This document shows positions 1,096 through 26,839 of a stretch of 46,453 bases of DNA, one piece after another (within the stretch, counting starts at the first letter, position 1; the number at the start of each line of letters is the position of its first letter). Position numbers and translations under genes: made by a program. Location of the stretch: the UHGV virus genome UHGV-1365003, one strand, 5' to 3'. The DNA is from a virus. A model generated the notes under the pieces. That model did not search any database, was not told the DNA's origin, and was given only the letters and a program-made list of their open reading frames with translations.

Positions 1096-1510
1096 GGTTT
1101 TTATCCTTGTAGTTAGTCACACCTTTGGAACTCAAGCTATCTTTCTCACGCCTTCCGCTATACTCTTTGCTTACATCCTCATACAAAACACCAAACGCCT
1201 TGCAGAAATTAAATAGTGCGTCACCAGCAAATACTTCGCTTGGATGCCAGTTTCCGGATTTTCTTGCAACATCCCTGTAAGATGCTGTCACTATGCCAAC
1301 ATTGTTTTCATATTGTATTCGACAAAACAGTACGTCATCATCAATGCAGATACCCATATTGCAGCGGAATACAGGCATTTTCCAGTAGTAAACTTCCATC
1401 AGGTGCTTTCCTGTCATCATAGATATTGCGTTATCATGTGCGCGCTCAGGATTTTCTGACTCAAAATAGTCATACAAACCTCTCATCACCAGATACTTGT
1501 AATTAATCAT
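1088..1510 (-). CDS. hypothetical protein (140 aa)
   Basis: ORF whose ATG overlaps the stop of the primase gene (ATGA). No recognisable motif. Confidence 0.5.
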   Translation of the reverse strand: MINYKYLVMRGLYDYFESENPERAHDNAISMMTGKHLMEVYYWKMPVFRCNMGICIDDDVLFCRIQYENNVGIVTASYRDVARKSGNWHPSEVFAGDALFNFCKAFGVLYEDVSKEYSGRREKDSLSSKGVTNYKDKNHV

Positions 1511-3840
1511 ATCTCAACCTCATCATTTGTTAATTTGTAAATTATTACGTTGTGAGATGTTCTTTTTGCATTTTCATCAATGCAAATAATACCATCTGAT
1601 AACAACTTCTCTACGCACCTCTCGACATCAGCACGTTTATAACCACCTTCTTTTGCCACCCCTCTAACCATTGCTGTTTTGGTCATTCCTCTCTTCACAT
1701 ATTCTTTAACCATGGAGAAAATACCTTCAATTCGTTCTTCCATAGCTTTAGACTTCGCTCCGGCGATACTGTCAGCACGCATCATCAGATCGCTTGTTGA
1801 TTTAATTGTTAATGCTACCGCATATCTCAAGTGCTCCATGGTTATGACGCCAGTATCGCACGCGAGAATTCCAGCAATCTTTGCCACCTTCACAGCGCAT
1901 CTGTTTATCAATGGGTGATAACCAGTACCATTTTCTACATGCTTTCTTGCCACGGTTTTAATCCATGAGAAGAACTCCTTAGCGAGTTGAGAAACTTCAG
2001 GCGTAGCTTTTATAATCCGTCTTTCTTTTTGACTGATTATTGAGTCTGTCCAGTTTTTGTGCCCAGCCGTTCCGCCATTTATTATTGTTTTTATGGTCAG
2101 TTGCATATCCATAGGTAGATCACAGTAGTTTACGCTTTCGTTTTCATCAGCAATCTCCTGTAACTCCTGCATAATCATTGCGCGCCCCATAAGACCTGAC
2201 TTAATGTTCTCTTCAGTGATAAGGCGCTTAAACTGATCATCAGTAGACACACCAAAGATTGAAAAAAATGGATTCCTTATAGCTCCATCAATTCTGTTTA
2301 TCACATCATCAAACTGACACTTAATGTCAACGGGGTCTGCCTGTATCTCATTTTCCTCAATAGCCATCAACAGCATAGCCTTTCTCTTTTCGAAAGACTT
2401 AATGAAATCCTCAGTAACCCGCTGGTCACAATAAAGAACTTCTGACGTGTAAGCCTCCATGATCGCACCAGCGGTTGCCATGTTGTACTCGCTTACTTTC
2501 TGACCAACAACACTACCAAGTTTTATCCCAATTTCATCCATGATGATATTAAACATCTGGTTAGCGCAAAGACCTTCATATATCGCACGCTCTGAGCGTA
2601 TCTTACCGGCAACTGTCTTACTCAATCCTGAGCAATCAATTATCTTTTGTAGCGCAGCAAGAACATCACCCTTACCAGAACCTGAACCAGCTATACCAAC
2701 AGCAAACAGGTTTGGTAAGGCTTTCCTGTTTGTAAGGTAAATATCAGATGACGCTCCGCAAATCATGGATGCGGCATGCAATGCGGCAAGTGCTGCAATG
2801 TTCTCTCGCTTCTCTGCACAGTTCTTATTAATCCACGCCGTAAGGCGACCAACAAATCCAGGAGGATAACGGACATCAACACTTTTGTACTCTACAGGGC
2901 ATTCACCAACACCCATTGCCATCTCTCGCTCGAAAGACTCAAGTTTCTCAATTTCCTCTGGAGTAGCCTCAAAAGTTACTTTCCTTACCCACCCTCCCTC
3001 TTGCGCGAGATAAACCAGCGTTGCTTCGGTTATCTTTTCGCTAACACCGTCCTTTCCAAAGGAATGCCATTTTGCGTCCATTTCTTCAGCTCTGTACTTG
3101 CTGAACTGCGATGACCACCTATCCCAAAGCTCAAAACCATTGCCTTCTGTAGCTTCGTGGATAGCCATACCCACATGAAGCCATGGGTCATACTCATCAC
3201 CATCTTTGATGTATTTGAGCATATCCTCCATTTCGGCAATGCTGTAATTTTTACTATCAAGCGTGAAAACCTCGTCTTCCGTTCTCTCAGGACGCAACAA
3301 AAGCTCAATAAGTTCAGAAGGGCATTCAGTTATCTCTGAAGGAGAGCCATGCTCAGCTTCATAAAAGTTACCTGACTTATGGAATGAGCCGCAGCCAACA
3401 ACAAAACCAGATGATTTAAAGTCAATACCCTTAAACCTTCTGTCATGAGAGCGCAGCTTTATTCCTTCAGGAAGTTTGTAATAGATGTGGCGACCACCAC
3501 CACCAGTCTTAACAGTAAAGCCAGCTTCGTCAGCAAGCTCTACGTCTAAGGCATCACAAAGCGATTCATATCCATCATTACCTCCGTTGCGTGGATCAAT
3601 ATCAACTACCAGATAACCATTCACAAGGACACCGAATGACTGCAATTGACCATATTCAGCCATATTTTCAATCTGGTCATCAGCCCATATAACTCCAAGC
3701 TGCCAGTTACTCATAACCGGATGCTTGCCGGCAGCATTGCACTCTGGATCACCGCATGTGCAATTGCGGTCGATATCCATTGCATGGATTCCAATAATAG
3801 GGAAGCCACATTTGCGGTAATCTTCATAACCAATCATCAT
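1507..3840 (-). CDS. bifunctional DNA primase-polymerase (PrimPol N-terminal domain) / P-loop helicase (D5/P4-alpha-like) replication protein
   Basis: 777-aa ORF. N-terminus has a Cys/His cluster (CTCGDPEC) and a PrimPol-like region (VVDIDPRNGG). Central Walker A GIAGSGSGKGDV. Large C-terminal helicase-like domain. Adjacent to an iteron/AT-rich region. Confidence 0.8.
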   Translation of the reverse strand: MMIGYEDYRKCGFPIIGIHAMDIDRNCTCGDPECNAAGKHPVMSNWQLGVIWADDQIENMAEYGQLQSFGVLVNGYLVVDIDPRNGGNDGYESLCDALDVELADEAGFTVKTGGGGRHIYYKLPEGIKLRSHDRRFKGIDFKSSGFVVGCGSFHKSGNFYEAEHGSPSEITECPSELIELLLRPERTEDEVFTLDSKNYSIAEMEDMLKYIKDGDEYDPWLHVGMAIHEATEGNGFELWDRWSSQFSKYRAEEMDAKWHSFGKDGVSEKITEATLVYLAQEGGWVRKVTFEATPEEIEKLESFEREMAMGVGECPVEYKSVDVRYPPGFVGRLTAWINKNCAEKRENIAALAALHAASMICGASSDIYLTNRKALPNLFAVGIAGSGSGKGDVLAALQKIIDCSGLSKTVAGKIRSERAIYEGLCANQMFNIIMDEIGIKLGSVVGQKVSEYNMATAGAIMEAYTSEVLYCDQRVTEDFIKSFEKRKAMLLMAIEENEIQADPVDIKCQFDDVINRIDGAIRNPFFSIFGVSTDDQFKRLITEENIKSGLMGRAMIMQELQEIADENESVNYCDLPMDMQLTIKTIINGGTAGHKNWTDSIISQKERRIIKATPEVSQLAKEFFSWIKTVARKHVENGTGYHPLINRCAVKVAKIAGILACDTGVITMEHLRYAVALTIKSTSDLMMRADSIAGAKSKAMEERIEGIFSMVKEYVKRGMTKTAMVRGVAKEGGYKRADVERCVEKLLSDGIICIDENAKRTSHNVIIYKLTNDEVEI

Positions 3841-4052
3841 TTAATTCTCCGAACAGACACTTCGCCTTCTTCCATCTTTCTGGTTACAAAAAGCCACGAA
3901 TTATCTTTCGCAACACAGCACAGGCTCGCCCTGAATTTTTCAATACTGTTATTGGCACGGAAATCATCTACCACAAAAAATCGCACCTCTCCAATCGACA
4001 TCCCGCTAACAAACTCATACACCTCAGCCATTGCGCTACCAAACCTGTACAT
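3837..4052 (-). CDS. hypothetical protein (71 aa), first gene of the primase operon
   Basis: GGAGG RBS 5 nt upstream of ATG (MYRFGSAMAEVYEF). Stop overlaps the primase ATG (ATGA). Confidence 0.5.
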   Translation of the reverse strand: MYRFGSAMAEVYEFVSGMSIGEVRFFVVDDFRANNSIEKFRASLCCVAKDNSWLFVTRKMEEGEVSVRRIK

Positions 4053-4175
4053 GACAACCTCCAGACAATGAATCAACAACAAACTCAATTTAATATATCA
4101 ACTTTTCTATAATTCAGCAAGCACACGAAGAAACACTTAATAGCAACCTACATACTTTGCTTCCTGAGTTGACAC

Positions 4176-4420
4176 GCTTCCCGAAAAAGCGTATTAATAT
4201 TTCAGAGCTTAATTTTTACTTTATCTTTCAATAGTATATAGGTAAATGAGAAAAATTATCGGGAAGCCAATATTAAGCAAAATCAATAGTTTAGGTGTTC
4301 GCTTCCCGAGTCAAAAAAATGGATAAACAAAAGCTCATCATAAAAAAAAGGGGGGGGTATTTTCGGGAAGCTGGGAAGCGAGCGGAAAATACTGAAAACA
4401 AAAGGAATTTGGCTTCCCGA
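4176..4420. repeat. iteron array: 9-mer GCTTCCCGA in alternating orientation (approx. 4176-4184+, 4259-4267-, 4301-4309+, 4364-4372-, half-site 4373-4379, 4412-4420+)
   Basis: Seen directly in the sequence. Five full copies plus one partial in ~245 bp of non-coding DNA, immediately upstream of the primase-helicase operon. Confidence 0.55.
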
Positions 4421-4439
4421 TAACTTGGGATTCAAAATT

Positions 4440-4640
4440 AACTAAATTAATTAACAAATCAACCAGCTTAATTGCTGGTTTTGTGTTTCTGTATCGTAAG
4501 GTATTAATATCTATAATAAATATAAAGAAGATCTTAATATACTTTATAGAGGTAATAAACAAAGGCTACTATTAGTAATATATGTAACTATATATGTAAG
4601 CTAGCGTTCACTAACATTTAGCCGTGCTTTTTCTTTCTCT
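4440..4640. other. AT-rich tract (candidate DNA unwinding element) with internal hairpin AACCAGC-ttaatt-GCTGGTT+TTTTGTGTTT (approx. 4463-4492)
   Basis: ~75-80% A+T over ~180 bp next to the iterons. The hairpin plus T-tract looks like a plus-strand terminator. Confidence 0.4.
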
Positions 4641-6622: not shown

Positions 6623-6757
6623 ATGATTTGTAAAACATGTGGTAAGGAGCTTCTTCCTGGATGCCGTAAGGATAAGAAGTATTGCTCTCCTTATTGCAAG
6701 CTAAAAGCCACGAGGAGGAGAAATGCTGACAAAAAGCAGAGCGTTCAAATGGGATGA
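6623..6757 (+). CDS. hypothetical zinc-ribbon micro-protein (CxxC...CxxxC, 44 aa)
   Basis: GAGGTG RBS. Sequence MICKTCGKELLPGCRKDKKYCSPYCKLKATRRR. 3' end overlaps the HNH gene start. Confidence 0.35.
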   Translation: MICKTCGKELLPGCRKDKKYCSPYCKLKATRRRNADKKQSVQMG

Positions 6758-7226
6758 TGTATTTGATTATAGCGATGGGGTGCTACTGTGGAAAATTAAG
6801 CCTTGTAAGAACATGGAAAAATCATCTCCCGCTGGAACCATGAGAAACGATGGTTACTTGCAAGTCAGATTCATGAATAAGATACATTTGATTCATAGAA
6901 TTGTATGGGAAATGCTTAACGGCGAGATACCTCATTGTATGCAAATAGACCACATCAACCACGACAGAAGTGACAACAGAATTCAAAATTTAAGGATGGT
7001 CACTAAAATATCAAACGGTAGAAATTTGACCAAGAAAATAAATAACACTAGTGGCGTTACAGGTGTCTCATGGTACAAAAGCCGGGAAAAGTGGAGGGTG
7101 CAAATAATGGTTGACAGAAAAAGTATACACATTGGGTATTTTAGTGATTTTGAATCAGCTGTTGCTGCAAGGATTTCTGCTAATGAAAGGTATGGGTTCC
7201 ACAAAAATCACGGAGTGAATTGTTGA
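6723..7226 (+). CDS. HNH homing endonuclease with AP2-type DNA-binding domain (paralog 1 of 3)
   Basis: HNH motif region IDHINHDRSDNRIQNLRMV. AP2-like segment GVTGVSWYKSREKWRVQIMVDRKSIHIGYFSDFESA. Paralogous to 7989..8504 and 17180..17668. Confidence 0.85.
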   Translation: MLTKSRAFKWDDVFDYSDGVLLWKIKPCKNMEKSSPAGTMRNDGYLQVRFMNKIHLIHRIVWEMLNGEIPHCMQIDHINHDRSDNRIQNLRMVTKISNGRNLTKKINNTSGVTGVSWYKSREKWRVQIMVDRKSIHIGYFSDFESAVAARISANERYGFHKNHGVNC

Positions 7227-7889: not shown

Positions 7890-7988
7890 CTGATTTATAA
7901 TAATCAATGCGGCTAGGGGGCACCCGAAAAGCGACTCATCACCGCCTGCCGCATTCACTTCAATGATGCCCTGATGAGGAATCTATAT

Positions 7989-8504
7989 ATGCTTACGCAA
8001 GCAGAATTAAAACACATCCTTGATTACAATCCTGACACCGGAATTTTTACATGGAAAAACCCACACAAGCAGGGAAGGGCCAAACCCGGGAAGCCAGCAG
8101 GAACAATAAAATTATGCGGCCCCGTTGGTAGCAAACGACTGTATCACTATATTCATTTTGGAAGAAAGTGGTATAGATCGCACGGACTGGCTTGGCTTTA
8201 CATGACTGGTAGTTGGCCTGAAAAAGAAATAGACCACATAAACAACAATACGCTTGATAATCGTTTTGTTAATCTGCGAGAGGCTGACCATCAGCAAAAT
8301 GGTTACAACAAAAAACTACAGGCAAACAACACATCAGGGGTTAAGGGTGTGTATTGGGATAAATCAAGATGCAAGTGGATGGCAAGATTAAATATAAATG
8401 GCAGGATGGTTAACCTTGGCAGGTTCGCCAACATTGAAGATGCAGTCAAAAAGATAATGGAAGAAAGAGAGAAAAATCACGGGGAGTTTTGTAATCATGG
8501 CTAG
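7989..8504 (+). CDS. HNH homing endonuclease with AP2 domain (paralog 2), between terS and terL
   Basis: AGGAA RBS. HNH motif region IDHINNNTLDNRFVNL. AP2-like segment GVKGVYWDKSRCKWMARLNINGRMVNLGRFANIEDA. Confidence 0.85.
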   Translation: MLTQAELKHILDYNPDTGIFTWKNPHKQGRAKPGKPAGTIKLCGPVGSKRLYHYIHFGRKWYRSHGLAWLYMTGSWPEKEIDHINNNTLDNRFVNLREADHQQNGYNKKLQANNTSGVKGVYWDKSRCKWMARLNINGRMVNLGRFANIEDAVKKIMEEREKNHGEFCNHG

Positions 8505-17179: not shown

Positions 17180-17668
17180 TTACTTTAATGCTCCGTGATT
17201 TTTATGGAAACAATATTTTTCCTCAGCTGCTTTTCTGCATTCTGCAGCCATTGACAAGTTTGAGAATCTGCCAAGCGCAATCTGCTTTCCGTTCACGGCA
17301 ATCTTTGCATACCATTTCTTACCCTTGTTATCCCAACTAACTCCGACAACATTACTCGTGTTATCAGATCGCATAGAAAGATTCTTAGCGTTCTGCTTTC
17401 TGCTTACCAATCTGAGATTCTCAATCCTATTATCATCACGAATGTGGTTTATATGATCAATCTCCATCCCCTCTGGTATCTCACCATTGTGCATTCCCCA
17501 AATTATTCTATGCATCAGTCGCACTTTTCCAAAGCAATGAACCTGCATGTACCCATTACCTGCCATGCTTCCTGCCAGCCTCCCTATTTTCATGTTTCTG
17601 TTTGTTTTTATCTTCCAATATAGCAACCCATCACGGTATTCGAACACATCATTCCAATCCATCATCAC
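17180..17668 (-). CDS. HNH homing endonuclease with AP2 domain (paralog 3)
   Basis: MMMDWNDVFEYRDGLLYWKIK parallels the 6723 paralog. HNH motif region IDHINHIRDDNRIENLRLV. AP2-like segment GVSWDNKGKKWYAKIAVNGKQIALGRFSNLSMAA. Confidence 0.85.
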   Translation of the reverse strand: MMMDWNDVFEYRDGLLYWKIKTNRNMKIGRLAGSMAGNGYMQVHCFGKVRLMHRIIWGMHNGEIPEGMEIDHINHIRDDNRIENLRLVSRKQNAKNLSMRSDNTSNVVGVSWDNKGKKWYAKIAVNGKQIALGRFSNLSMAAECRKAAEEKYCFHKNHGALK

Positions 17669-23685: not shown

Positions 23686-23716
23686 TAAAAAAGGGGGTTT
23701 ATCCCCCTTCTTTGTA
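23686..23716. terminator. bidirectional hairpin terminator AAGGGGGtttatCCCCCTT
   Basis: Perfect stem with A-tract upstream and T-rich downstream. Separates the capsid gene (+) from the HNH-like gene (-). Confidence 0.7.
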
Positions 23717-24505
23717 TCTAATTTCACCGTAAACCATGTACTGTAACATGTAACAAAACTCCCATTCCGTCATATCTGTCCGTAGCCACCTCCTGTTCTT
23801 CTTGTAATTGTACTCCGCCGGCTCCGCTTTTAAATTGTGAAGAGCATTAACCAGTTCTGGATATACGAGGTTATTCTTAACAAACCAGTTGACAGATAAA
23901 ATATGGTCAATATGCCAATTATTGCGGTCATCAAAACTCATCCATGGAAGCATGGTTGATTTTATATGCTTAATGAAATCATCCTTTGAGTACCCGAGAA
24001 CATCATCTACCGTTCTATCAAGCGCAATGTCAGATACTCTCATATCAAGCCGCTCAAGCATTTTTCTTAGGAACACGTGGTGTGGGTGCTTCTTTTGCCA
24101 TTGCCTGACATTATCCAGAGCCTTTTTATTGCCTTTCTCTGAGTAGTACCATCTGCGATAAGCTTCCCTTTTCTTTTGTAAAAACTCCTCCTTTTTCTCT
24201 GGATTCTCGTTAAGCCTTTGCATCTTCCTTTTGTTGTACTCCTGTTGTGATTGTTTTCTTTTCTTTTTGTACTCGCTGTTATCCTTGTTTTTCTGCCACT
24301 CCTTTTTTCTGTACTCACTTTCCTTGCGTTTGCGCTCCTCTGTTATTCTCTGCTTCCTTGTTCTTTCGTATACACAATGCTTGCACCCACATGATGCCGT
24401 AAAAAACACAGTTCCACCACATACAGAGCATGGGACCCATTCACATATAAATTGCTTCAATCCAGCAACTCTTGCTTCTCGCGCGGCTTCTTTTCTTGTT
24501 TTCAT
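23699..24505 (-). CDS. HNH-motif protein with N-terminal Cys4 zinc ribbon and long K/E/R-rich low-complexity region
   Basis: N-terminus CEWVPCSVCGG...CGCKHC. ~120 aa of KxxK/E repeats. C-terminus NWHIDHILSVNWF is HNH-like. GGAG RBS at an internal ATG (MKTRKE). Confidence 0.5.
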   Translation of the reverse strand: MKTRKEAAREARVAGLKQFICEWVPCSVCGGTVFFTASCGCKHCVYERTRKQRITEERKRKESEYRKKEWQKNKDNSEYKKKRKQSQQEYNKRKMQRLNENPEKKEEFLQKKREAYRRWYYSEKGNKKALDNVRQWQKKHPHHVFLRKMLERLDMRVSDIALDRTVDDVLGYSKDDFIKHIKSTMLPWMSFDDRNNWHIDHILSVNWFVKNNLVYPELVNALHNLKAEPAEYNYKKNRRWLRTDMTEWEFCYMLQYMVYGEIRYKEGG

Positions 24506-24553
24506 AAAAGTCACTCCTAATTTGGTTCTATATTACTACAGGTGTAATGAGTG

Positions 24554-24791: not shown

Positions 24792-24821
24792 TAAAACCCG
24801 CATTATGCGGGTTTTTTATTG
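24792..24821. terminator. bidirectional hairpin terminator AAACCCGCattatGCGGGTTT
   Basis: Perfect stem with T6 downstream. Also ends minus-strand island C. Confidence 0.7.
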
Positions 24822-25358
24822 CTACAGACGCACCGGCATAACAACAATCTTCGCAGTCTCGCCAGATGGCGCACTAAGGCAGCAAACTGCAGCATTTGTA
24901 TTTCCATTCAGTTCTAATTTGACACCACAGAATTTTGGATTAAACAGCTTAGCCACTTTTTCGATATCAACCAGATAGCCAGCATTAAAGCCAATCTCCT
25001 CTGCTGCTTTCGTTTCCTTAGGTATCACGCGATCAATGTCAGGGAACCGACCATCAATCTCTTCGCAGATACCAGTGCCAACCATCGCTCCAGCTTCATC
25101 ATGATACGTTGCAATTTTCGACTTGGTATCAATGATGGCGTACTCATAACGTTTTGTTGGAGACTTGCTAATCTTGATGATCACATTTTCTGTCAGCTTA
25201 TTGTCATGGCTTCCACCAATGAATGCGCGATGACCGTCAGTTGATGCAATGCGACCATCAGGCATGAAGCAGATGCCGTTCAGGTAGTAACGCACATCAT
25301 TGCGCGCATGAAATATTAACGCTGATTCAAGTAATAGTTTGCTGATTTTTAGTTTCAT
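24822..25358 (-). CDS. truncated beta sliding clamp (DnaN) homolog: domain II plus C-terminal end of domain III
   Basis: 178 aa. Aligns to E. coli DnaN residues ~138-366: HARNDVRYYLNGICF vs HQDVRYYLNGMLF; STDGHRAF vs ATDGHRLA; DGRFPDIDRVIPK vs DGRFPDYRRVLPK; EIGFNAGYLVD vs EIGFNVSYVLD; C-terminus AKIVVMPVRL vs AAYVVMPMRL. About 65 aa of domain III are absent. Confidence 0.7.
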   Translation of the reverse strand: MKLKISKLLLESALIFHARNDVRYYLNGICFMPDGRIASTDGHRAFIGGSHDNKLTENVIIKISKSPTKRYEYAIIDTKSKIATYHDEAGAMVGTGICEEIDGRFPDIDRVIPKETKAAEEIGFNAGYLVDIEKVAKLFNPKFCGVKLELNGNTNAAVCCLSAPSGETAKIVVMPVRL

Positions 25359-25533
25359 CACTTCACCTTAATCATGTGTTGTTTTGCAACCTTCAGGCAC
25401 TCTTCAAAAATGCCACCCTTCTTTGCGCTCTGGTTGCGCTTGTAATACTGGATCGCCGCATCAATTGCCATCTGGTCGATGTCAGGCAGCTTGGCGCGCA
25501 GCTGTTTTTCGATGAATTGTTCAGCGTTCACTT
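25358..25533 (-). CDS. hypothetical protein (~57 aa, GTG start)
   Basis: GAGGTG RBS. Sequence VNAEQFIEKQLRAKLPDIDQMAIDAAIQYYKRNQSAKKGGIFEECLKVAKQHMIKVK. Stop overlaps the clamp-fragment ATG. Confidence 0.4.
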
Positions 25534-25616: not shown

Positions 25617-26426
25617 TCACATCTTCTCCAGAATTGCCATAACCTCGTGAATATCAGCAACAGGAATCTGGATAAATTCCTCGTCCTCAGCCACAACATG
25701 ACCAGCAGGTAGAATCACATGGTCTGCTGGTTTCAATAACTCGATCATGCGGTCTACTGGCTTAATCTTTTTCGACTTCAGCACCTTTGCCGTGACCTTA
25801 TCCTTACCTTGCGCTTTGGCCTCTTCGACTGCCTCGTCGATAACTTTAACCGCATCATCGCCATGCTCACGCGTTACTGCTACGGCATTTGCATAGCTGA
25901 TTTGCCCTGCACTGATGCGCGCTTTTACTTCCGCTGGCACATCACCAAGCGACAGGTGCATTTGCACGTCAGATACTGAGCGACCGACCTTTTTGGCGAT
26001 TTCTTCATTCGTCCAGCCAAAGCCTTTCAGTCGCGTGTAAGCCTTTGCGCGCTCAAACGGGTCGAGCTGCTTGCCCTGACTGGATGACACCATGAAGGCA
26101 ATTTTATCCGCCTCATCGCCAGCGAAATCCTTACACTCAATGCGAACGATTGGCGCGCCACGCTCAATGGCACGCAATGCGCCGAGATAGCGATGCTGAC
26201 CATCAAGAATGCGGATTCCCTTCTCGTCAGGAATAACTGTTAATGCTGGCAGTGGCTGACCTGATTCCCAGCACTGCGCGAAATATTCCACATGCTGCTC
26301 ATCTGCTTCGCGGATGTTATATCCCGGCTCCAGATAGATTTGCTCCACTGGTACGAGATAGGTTTTGTTTACAGCGATGCCGTTCCGCGTTTCTTTGTCT
26401 GAATAGATTTTACTGAGCGTTTTCAT
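25617..26426 (-). CDS. ParB-like nuclease-domain (ParB/Srx fold) protein with HTH
   Basis: ParB N-terminal motifs IRILDGQHRYLGA. HTH segment GWTNEEIAKKVGRSVSDVQMHLSLG. Confidence 0.65.
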   Translation of the reverse strand: MKTLSKIYSDKETRNGIAVNKTYLVPVEQIYLEPGYNIREADEQHVEYFAQCWESGQPLPALTVIPDEKGIRILDGQHRYLGALRAIERGAPIVRIECKDFAGDEADKIAFMVSSSQGKQLDPFERAKAYTRLKGFGWTNEEIAKKVGRSVSDVQMHLSLGDVPAEVKARISAGQISYANAVAVTREHGDDAVKVIDEAVEEAKAQGKDKVTAKVLKSKKIKPVDRMIELLKPADHVILPAGHVVAEDEEFIQIPVADIHEVMAILEKM

Positions 26427-26776
26427 TGTTTCTTTCCTAATGCTTTCTTGATAGATTCTTCAGCTAACAGCAATTCTTCTGGGTATTGCTCATTCCAGTT
26501 TTGTTTGTATGCCTTGCTAAGCATTTTTTGCAGAGCTTCAAGCAACTCAGGTGCTGCTGCCATTAAATTAAAGTCATGTTCAACAGATGAATCAATTTCC
26601 CATCGCATTCCATTAAATTTGGCCCCCTTATTTGAATAAGCAATATTGCGAGAATCATCCCTGTGACATCCTGGAGTGTCATCGATGCAACTGGCTGGGT
26701 AAATTGCTGCGCAACCTCCACGGATGTCTGCAACCCAAGGCCATTTCGTACCTTTAAATTCATTTTCCATCTTCAT
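26423..26776 (-). CDS. hypothetical protein (117 aa)
   Basis: AGAGGTG RBS. Start MKMENEF. First gene of island C. Confidence 0.5.
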   Translation of the reverse strand: MKMENEFKGTKWPWVADIRGGCAAIYPASCIDDTPGCHRDDSRNIAYSNKGAKFNGMRWEIDSSVEHDFNLMAAAPELLEALQKMLSKAYKQNWNEQYPEELLLAEESIKKALGKKQ

Positions 26777-26810
26777 CACCTCTAACATTTATTGTTGTTT
26801 CTACGTAATT

Positions 26811-26839
26811 ACTATAAACACCCTCTCAATCTACGTCAA
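26811..26839 (-). promoter_or_regulatory. sigma70 promoter TTGACG-N17-TATAGT (GTTGACGTAGATTGAG element) for island C
   Basis: Minus strand reads ctGTTGACGTAGATTGAGagggtgttTATAGTaattacgtagaa. Confidence 0.55.

Follow-up and report, generated by a model that had tools for sequence, protein, structure and literature searches.

A pruned phage homolog of the DnaN β clamp with a predicted partner-binding pocket

What use would a phage have for a β clamp that has lost the parts that close the ring? The question is raised by a minus-strand gene in UHGV virus genome UHGV-1365003, a stretch of 46,453 nucleotides that was analyzed at its full length and is called the window here. The window is a Skatevirus-type siphophage genome of 46.5 kb, with about 92% nucleotide identity to the Salmonella phages VSt472 and ST1UNAM and the Shigella phage Sf11. 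An earlier note, made from the sequence alone, had described one of its products as a diverged fragment of DnaN, and the open reading frame (ORF) was found where that note had placed it, at 24822..25358 on the minus strand. It runs from an ATG at 25358 to a TAG stop at 24822-24824, encodes 178 amino acids, and contains every sequence block that had been quoted: DVRYYLNG at residues 21 to 28, TDGHR at 40 to 44, DGRFPDIDRVIPK at 102 to 114, EIGFN at 121 to 125, and VVMPVRL at 172 to 178. The β clamp is a hub for bacterial polymerases, the clamp loader, mismatch repair, Hda, and many mobile-element proteins, and its partner-binding pocket is an antibiotic target. We found that the gene encodes a folded, selected, and pruned β clamp, a diverged DnaN fragment that consists of domain II without its second helix and one β-α-β-β-β unit of domain III.

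A phmmer search of all Protein Data Bank (PDB) chains returned only β clamps, the best of them enterobacterial (E = 5e-13 to 3e-12). The alignment paired query residues 7 to 154 with DnaN 136 to 289, and a weaker second stretch paired residues 118 to 178 with DnaN 313 to 366. When a profile was built from 95 diverse family members, it matched DnaN at E = 1.4e-26. An AlphaFold2 model made on the family alignment was confident, with a predicted local distance difference test score of 96.8 and a predicted template modeling (TM) score of 0.91, and Foldseek placed DnaN alone at the top of the PDB matches to it. The phmmer matches, the family profile, and this confident clamp-fold model together uphold the proposed homology to DnaN. 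Identity had been put at about 35 to 40%, which is close to what we measured: the BLAST local alignment gave 31%, and a global alignment with room for a large deletion gave 36% (59/165). Pfam did return the two expected families, PF02767 (beta_2; E = 0.018, 15.8 bits) and PF02768 (beta_3; E = 0.044, 14 bits), but both fell below the cutoff of 27, and PF00712 gave no match in the clamp protein. TIGR00663 scored 34.3 bits against a cutoff of 137.65, and the protein falls outside DnaN proper both by these cutoffs and by length (about 366 amino acids and three domains). The subthreshold Pfam and NCBIfam scores are probably why many records label the gene hypothetical.

The phage protein has the repeated β-α-β-β-β units of the DNA-clamp fold. 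In the model, a strand at residues 2 to 6 and a helix at 7 to 16 are followed by strands at 29 to 31, 37 to 40, 44 to 48, and 59 to 63, a nine-residue loop at 64 to 72, strands at 73 to 77, 82 to 86, and 92 to 101, a linker, and a β-α-β-β-β unit whose helix spans 126 to 139. There is no helix between the strands at 59 to 63 and 73 to 77, which means that domain II has lost its second helix; both the secondary structure of the model and the alignment gap put the short loop (25143..25169, minus strand) in its place. In the global alignment, DnaN 1 to 129 and approximately 251 to 314 have no counterpart. The anatomy first proposed was therefore correct in that domain I and about 60 residues of domain III (DnaN ~251-314) are absent, but it had omitted the loss of the domain II helix. 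Following the linker, the C-terminal unit begins as the first half of domain III and ends as the second half (EIGFN...VVMPxRL), and because of this it aligns with both halves. The elements that are kept from the clamp fold, namely, a continuous sheet over the domain II/III boundary, the outer sheet of domain II, and two helices, are those that carry the partner cleft.

The pocket of DnaN has been described as two subsites, with R152, L155, T172, G174, H175, R176, L177, P242, R246, V247, V360, and M362 in subsite I and H175, N320, Y323, V344, M362, P363, M364, and R365 in subsite II (PMC11139829). Fifteen of these 18 published residues are identical in the phage protein (hypergeometric p = 1.7e-5 against a background of 36% identity), and the positions that differ are L177A, V344T, and M364V. 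All of the blocks that hold them are on the minus strand. The counterparts of R152 and L155 lie in DVRYYLNG (25275..25298; DnaN 150-157), where D21, R23, Y25, L26, and G28 are each at least 80% conserved in the family. TDGHRA (residues 40 to 45; 25224..25241; DnaN 172-177) supplies subsite I and includes H175, the bridging residue; T40, G42, and H43 of this block are near-invariant. The interdomain linker DGRFPDIDRVIPK (25017..25055; DnaN 238-250) provides P242, R246, and V247, and its P106 is kept in 94 of 95 family members. N320 and Y323 are found in IGFN and the helix AGYLVDIEKVAKLF (residues 122 to 139; 24942..24995; DnaN 317-333), which also bears the conserved lysines K134 and K137. Finally, the C-terminal strand VVMPVRL (24825..24845; DnaN 360-366) provides V360, M362, P363, and R365, and M174, P175, and R177 are near-invariant there.

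Across the 95-sequence family, 16 columns besides M1 are at least 80% conserved. Ten of these are pocket residues (R23, L26, T40, G42, H43, P106, Y128, M174, P175, and R177), and the rest are D21, Y25, G28, I60, G103, and D107. Because the most-conserved columns are largely pocket residues, selection in the family acts on the pocket and not on the fold alone. These counts bear out the claim that the conserved blocks are the pocket-forming residues. Judged by sequence and by fold superposition, the phage protein is thus predicted to retain the hydrophobic pocket in which DnaN binds clamp-binding motifs at the junction of domains II and III.

The elements that close the canonical ring are gone. 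Mutation of I272/L273 renders β monomeric (PMC11139829), and the phage protein lacks the head-to-tail dimer interface because domain I and the DnaN segment with I272/L273 are both deleted. The assertion that such a protein cannot form a ring consequently holds for the canonical interface only. Compared with E. coli DnaN (PDB 1MMI/2POL), the protein has the same fold, homology over DnaN ~130-250 and ~315-366, and most of the pocket, but it is 178 rather than 366 amino acids long, is without the first half of domain III in addition to domain I and the domain II helix, and is basic instead of acidic. The family as a whole is mildly basic, with a median pI of 8.3 versus 5.2 for DnaN, and the conserved lysines K19, K134, and K137 are on elements that formerly faced the channel, K134 and K137 being on the retained helix. 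The protein also differs from the clamps of the PCNA and T4 gp45 type, in which each chain has two complete clamp domains and the ring is a trimer. E. coli β* (dnaN*), described by the Livneh laboratory in 1996, is said to be a UV-induced β with an internal start near residue 135 and complete domains II and III, and it reportedly forms a trimeric ring that supports processivity. It resembles the phage protein as a natural clamp without domain I that starts at the domain I/II boundary, but the phage protein does not have complete domains II and III, since half of domain III and one domain II helix are missing. Our literature searches for papers on E. coli β* returned nothing relevant. The best experimental proxy for a free pocket module is the monomeric β I272A/L273A, a nonring β that has an intact pocket and binds DNA (PMC11139829), although it is an engineered three-domain protein and not a natural phage protein of 1.5 domains.

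The gene belongs to a phage family that has already been annotated. It matched PHROG 3007 over its full length (E = 1.5e-63; residues 1 to 178 on profile positions 1 to 186 of 190), and tblastn found a homolog in 290 phage records, with 281 covering at least 80% of the query. The carriers include Skatevirus, Dhillonvirus, Kagunavirus- and Jersey-like phages, Naesvirus (Bcep43), Lietduovirus, Yokohamavirus, and many Vibrio phages. An exhaustive search of 50%-identity cluster representatives gave 186 matches at E < 1e-10; within the best 150, a length of 160 to 215 amino acids is shared by 127. In BFVD, many short viral models superpose at TM scores of 0.8 to 0.9. Among Skatevirus orthologs, the ratio of nonsynonymous to synonymous substitution rates (dN/dS) is about 0.1, which indicates purifying selection. 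Hundreds of phage records, a common length among the best 150 matches, and this low ratio agree with the view of an old, evolving homolog and not of a recent capture. Bcep43 gp15 also best matches enterobacterial clamps, and sampling in the PDB is too uneven for such matches to be read as host tracking.

Several names have been given to this family. The short phage "Pol III beta" proteins of PHROG 3007 (Bcep43 gp15, SO-1 gp07, and that of Pantoea phage LIET2) are of the same length class and differ in nothing essential; Bcep43 gp15 is annotated as "DNA Pol III b subunit fragment" and SO-1 gp07 as "possible moron gene product." The architecture had been thought uncharacterized, and our literature searches did find no functional study of a short phage clamp or a clamp decoy, but the gene family has been named since the Bcep43 and SO-1 genome records. 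PHROG 3007, and RefSeq by way of PHROG 3007 (e.g., NC_054644.1 gp34), label the family "RusA-like Holliday junction resolvase." We rejected this label: no RusA family was found in Pfam even at E ≤ 10, and the fold is that of a DNA clamp. The fold, like the profile searches, identifies a β-clamp fragment, and the RusA label is therefore an annotation error that has been propagated. In Bcep43, the Rus gene is a separate one, gp22.

Does the phage need this gene? A genome-reduction study of Skatevirus seszw deposited many mutant genomes (PMC9825161), and it is from these deposited genomes that we infer whether the clamp gene can be deleted. The seszw region from ParB to coat was present in 72 records at 99% identity or more and the clamp gene alone in 47, which leaves about 25 of the 72 without the gene. 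The clones seszw_150S and seszw_170S are viable with both the clamp (gene 16) and the small ORF upstream of it (gene 17) gone, and the clamp gene is therefore unneeded for laboratory plaque formation. Other strongly reduced seszw genomes, down to 37.7 kb, retain it. The viability of these mutants does not imply neutrality. The prior annotation of the family and the deletability in a related phage do make the finding less of a surprise.

Next, we considered the neighborhoods of the gene in other carriers, which are of two kinds: it is either a lone antisense gene in the head module or part of an early DNA-metabolism operon. The first kind is seen in SO-1, Bcep43, and Ivi; a GC-rich hairpin follows the gene in SO-1 and Ivi, and none was found after the Bcep43 clamp gene. 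As for the second kind, the gene lies between cII and O/P-type replication genes in the lambdoid phage yong1, and both there and in locus L021 it directly precedes an O-type initiator gene (Phage_rep_O). It comes after RecT/YqaJ in locus L027, in the early region of an integrated prophage in locus L022, beside helicase and nuclease genes in phage Nafs113, and right after Pol A in Edwardsiella phage PEi21. The PEi21 copy (L016 3459-4028) has an in-frame stop and is annotated as two ORFs, which may reflect a pseudogene, a sequencing error, or readthrough. In a temperate phage contig (Logan ERR11525732; L018 4001-4754), a 172-amino-acid short clamp is followed after 40 nucleotides by a 64-amino-acid gene of the DNA polymerase III (Pol III) θ family (PF06440) and then by RelA_SpoT. 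Phage P1 Hot, a θ homolog that binds ε, is likewise a small, phage-borne part of the Pol III holoenzyme, although its protein family is different from that of the clamp; a θ-family gene near a short clamp was seen at this one locus only. A gene for a ParB-like helix-turn-helix (HTH) protein directly precedes the clamp gene both in the window phage and in locus L020, an unrelated phage contig. In the latter (3207-4564), the clamp is 40% identical, and the ParB-HTH stop and the clamp start overlap by 4 nucleotides. The ParB-HTH/KorB gene and the short clamp may be a functional pair.

SO-1, Bcep43, and PEi21 carry a family-A polymerase that is absent from the window phage, and no DNA polymerase gene of any kind was found anywhere in the window. 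Because carriers occur both with and without a polymerase of their own, a role tied to one particular polymerase is unlikely. A processivity factor specific for the host Pol III was also weakened as a candidate, since the carriers include phages with their own Pol A.

A phage-encoded partner for the pocket would be expected to show a clamp-binding motif. The motif scan of the window yielded just two matches, QMHLSL at an internal site of the ParB-like protein and QLHLLL in an ORF of 52 amino acids. The scanned stretches of SO-1, Nafs113, and two Vibrio phages contained no strict motif, and the neighbors of the yong1 clamp contained none. The neighbors in PEi21 had loose matches and no others: the polymerase contains QIDLY, and an 89-amino-acid ORF contains QAAIL. 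Bcep43 had three pattern matches, namely, QLSLF in gp17, QVSMF in a 308-amino-acid ORF, and QIVMHL in gp61, the Pol I gene. Bcep43 gp17 (L010 11926-14070) is a large head-module protein encoded two genes from the clamp, and its QLSLF, a perfect consensus at residue 462, is a single occurrence. We rejected the scan matches as evidence for a phage-encoded partner.

What, then, might the protein do? Our favored reading, held tentatively and at slightly less than even confidence, is that it is a nonring receptor for clamp-binding motifs that competes with the host β. Six observations point to a soluble competitor module: a selected and intact pocket, the loss of the ring-closing elements, the want of a phage partner motif, a presence that does not depend on a polymerase, an early DNA-metabolism context, and accessory status. 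The protein would be made early from a promoter of the type used by the host RNA polymerase, alongside other accessory genes of DNA metabolism, and would act as a soluble receptor for motifs of the QL[SD]LF type without encircling DNA. It would then compete with the host β ring for clients, for which the δ subunit of the clamp loader, Hda, MutS/MutL, Pol II/IV/V, Pol I/ligase, and Pol III α/ε are candidates. The outcome would be that clamp-dependent replication control or repair in the host is diverted from the replication or recombination intermediates of the phage. Because the neighbors include single-strand-annealing and exonuclease genes and replication initiators, MutS/MutL, Hda, and the translesion polymerases are attractive guesses. 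There is a precedent in the monomeric β mutant, which shows about 50-fold tighter binding to δ than the ring and is unable to tether Pol III (PMC11139829). The narrower proposal that the free-standing pocket serves as a protein sponge or switch for host clamp-motif proteins, for example by blunting mismatch repair, Hda control, or translesion polymerases during phage recombination and replication, is a possibility to which we give rather less credence. The earlier note had suggested a decoy, a poison subunit, or a processivity adaptor for the phage primase-helicase; a decoy or adaptor function is reasonable but unproven.

Several points weigh against a competitor of host β. The seszw/Skate allele (L002 3001-3537), which is the source of the dispensability evidence, has Y25C and R177L at near-invariant pocket positions; these changes hint at relaxed function in a phage in which the gene is deletable. 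A decoy that trapped Pol III α, ε, or δ would harm phages that depend on the host replicase, among them the window phage and the lambdoid carriers. Since a phage that depends on the host Pol III cannot afford indiscriminate trapping of these subunits, some selectivity for clients must be assumed. The basic pI and the helix lysines fit a DNA-contacting tether equally well as or better than a pure sponge, and the frequent position by replication genes would also suit an adaptor.

The main rival explanation is just such a tether or adaptor, one that forms no ring and would be a functional counterpart of herpesvirus UL42. Its basic inner face would sit on DNA or on the phage replisome, and its pocket would recruit a clamp-motif polymerase or other protein (the host Pol III core, the phage Pol A, or ligase) to phage DNA. 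Across several lineages the gene adjoins an O-type initiator, Pol A, helicase and nuclease genes, or a θ homolog, and the basic family pI and the lysines K19, K134, and K137 on former channel-facing elements would provide a surface for DNA. The monomeric β mutant, for its part, still binds DNA, but it confers no processivity (PMC11139829). The DNA-facing surface that is left in the phage protein is also small, with two helices, and the carriers include phages with and without a polymerase. Furthermore, no window protein has a convincing clamp-binding motif and neighbors in other phages have only loose or isolated matches, whereas UL42, UL44, and BMRF1 have a dedicated viral polymerase partner; these herpesvirus proteins also have two complete domains and no detectable sequence relation to the phage protein. 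Given, in addition, that the gene can be deleted in seszw, we consider the tether unlikely, though a serious competitor.

A true sliding clamp assembled from four copies is considerably less probable. Here two C-terminal half-domains would pair about a twofold axis and so rebuild a complete domain, and two N-terminal edges would do likewise, giving a D2 ring of 12 motifs with pockets on both faces. The pseudo-twofold symmetry of the clamp fold would make such homotypic pairing of half-domains conceivable, four copies of 1.5 domains would add up to six domains, and the C-terminal unit does align with both halves of domain III. We know of no precedent for such a ring. The missing domain II helix would leave the lining of the channel incomplete, and the deletions have removed contacts that the host loader would need, among them a five-residue loop of domain III touched by δ (PMC11139829).

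Slightly less probable again is a poison subunit, in which the exposed edge strands of the fragment would cap new host β monomers at the dimer edge and so block ring closure. By pseudo-symmetry, the sheet on the N side of domain II would be homologous to the interface sheet of domain I, and phages do attack the clamp or its loader by other means, as in the Gp168-β complex 7evp, which was among the structure matches. Conservation, however, lies on the peptide pocket and not on the edge strands, host β dimers are very stable, and an attack on β would damage a phage that has no polymerase of its own. Nothing specific favors either the four-copy ring or the β-capping poison. Weakest of all is a decaying, functionless remnant of a captured dnaN, which the deletability in seszw, the altered seszw allele, and the in-frame stop in PEi21 might suggest but which is very hard to reconcile with the dN/dS of about 0.1, a length and a pair of deletions common to hundreds of diverse phages, the pocket-specific conservation, the confident fold prediction, and a gene that has its own Shine-Dalgarno sequence and terminator.

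Should the receptor reading be true, a compact and probably monomeric pocket module of such wide occurrence among phages would signal a new form of viral rewiring of host DNA transactions, and a sponge or switch would represent a principle of host takeover not yet described. The module would also serve as a minimal scaffold on which pocket ligands could be studied or screened, and hundreds of phage genomes would be rid of the "RusA-like resolvase" misannotation. With related phages (BASEL Bas77-81 and seszw) and deletion mutants already available, the family can be tested directly.

In the window, the clamp gene is the last of a four-gene minus-strand unit (a 121-amino-acid ORF, the ParB-like gene, a 57-amino-acid ORF, and the clamp) placed between the capsid and tail genes. 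The first gene (26423..26788, minus strand) matches phrog_1273, of unknown function. It is followed by the ParB-like HTH/KorB-domain protein of 269 amino acids (25617..26426, minus strand; PHROG 1033, E = 4e-90; Pfam HTH_ParB and KorB). The 57-amino-acid ORF (25358..25531, minus strand; phrog_4439, unknown function) has a TGA stop that overlaps the clamp ATG by one base (TGATG), and the Shine-Dalgarno sequence of the clamp gene, AAGGTG, sits inside its 3' end; on these two grounds the ORF and the clamp gene are probably translationally coupled. A GC-rich hairpin with T-runs on both strands (24793..24815) starts 7 nucleotides after the clamp stop codon and, from its sequence, looks like a bidirectional intrinsic terminator that closes the unit. 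Upstream of the unit there is a sigma-70-like promoter match on the minus strand (26811..26839; TTGACG, 17-nucleotide spacer, TATAGT), which agrees with the consensus at 10 of 12 positions; the count of such matches in the region was not above that in shuffles. PADLOC models gave no match for the clamp-like protein or its three operon neighbors, and a defense or counterdefense component was rejected on that account.

The replication set of the window phage comprises a Prim-Pol/PriCT-2 primase fused to a helicase-like region, a superfamily-2 helicase, SSB, Gam, and Sak4. The replication protein of 777 amino acids at 1507-3840 (minus strand) is a fusion of Prim-Pol, PriCT-2, and DUF3987. The window also contains three paralogous HNH endonuclease genes (phrog_99, E ~1e-64 to 1e-66) at 6723-7226 (plus strand), 7974-8504 (plus strand), and 17180-17668 (minus strand), two of which flank the terminase region. 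Finally, an ORF of 271 amino acids at 23699-24514 (minus strand) has a Cys-rich N terminus and a long Lys/Glu/Gln-rich middle; Pfam gave no match to it, and its resemblance to endonuclease VII (phrog_1035, E = 4e-17) is weak. This ORF lies in the stretch where gene content varies most among related phages, some of which have methylase or EaC genes there.

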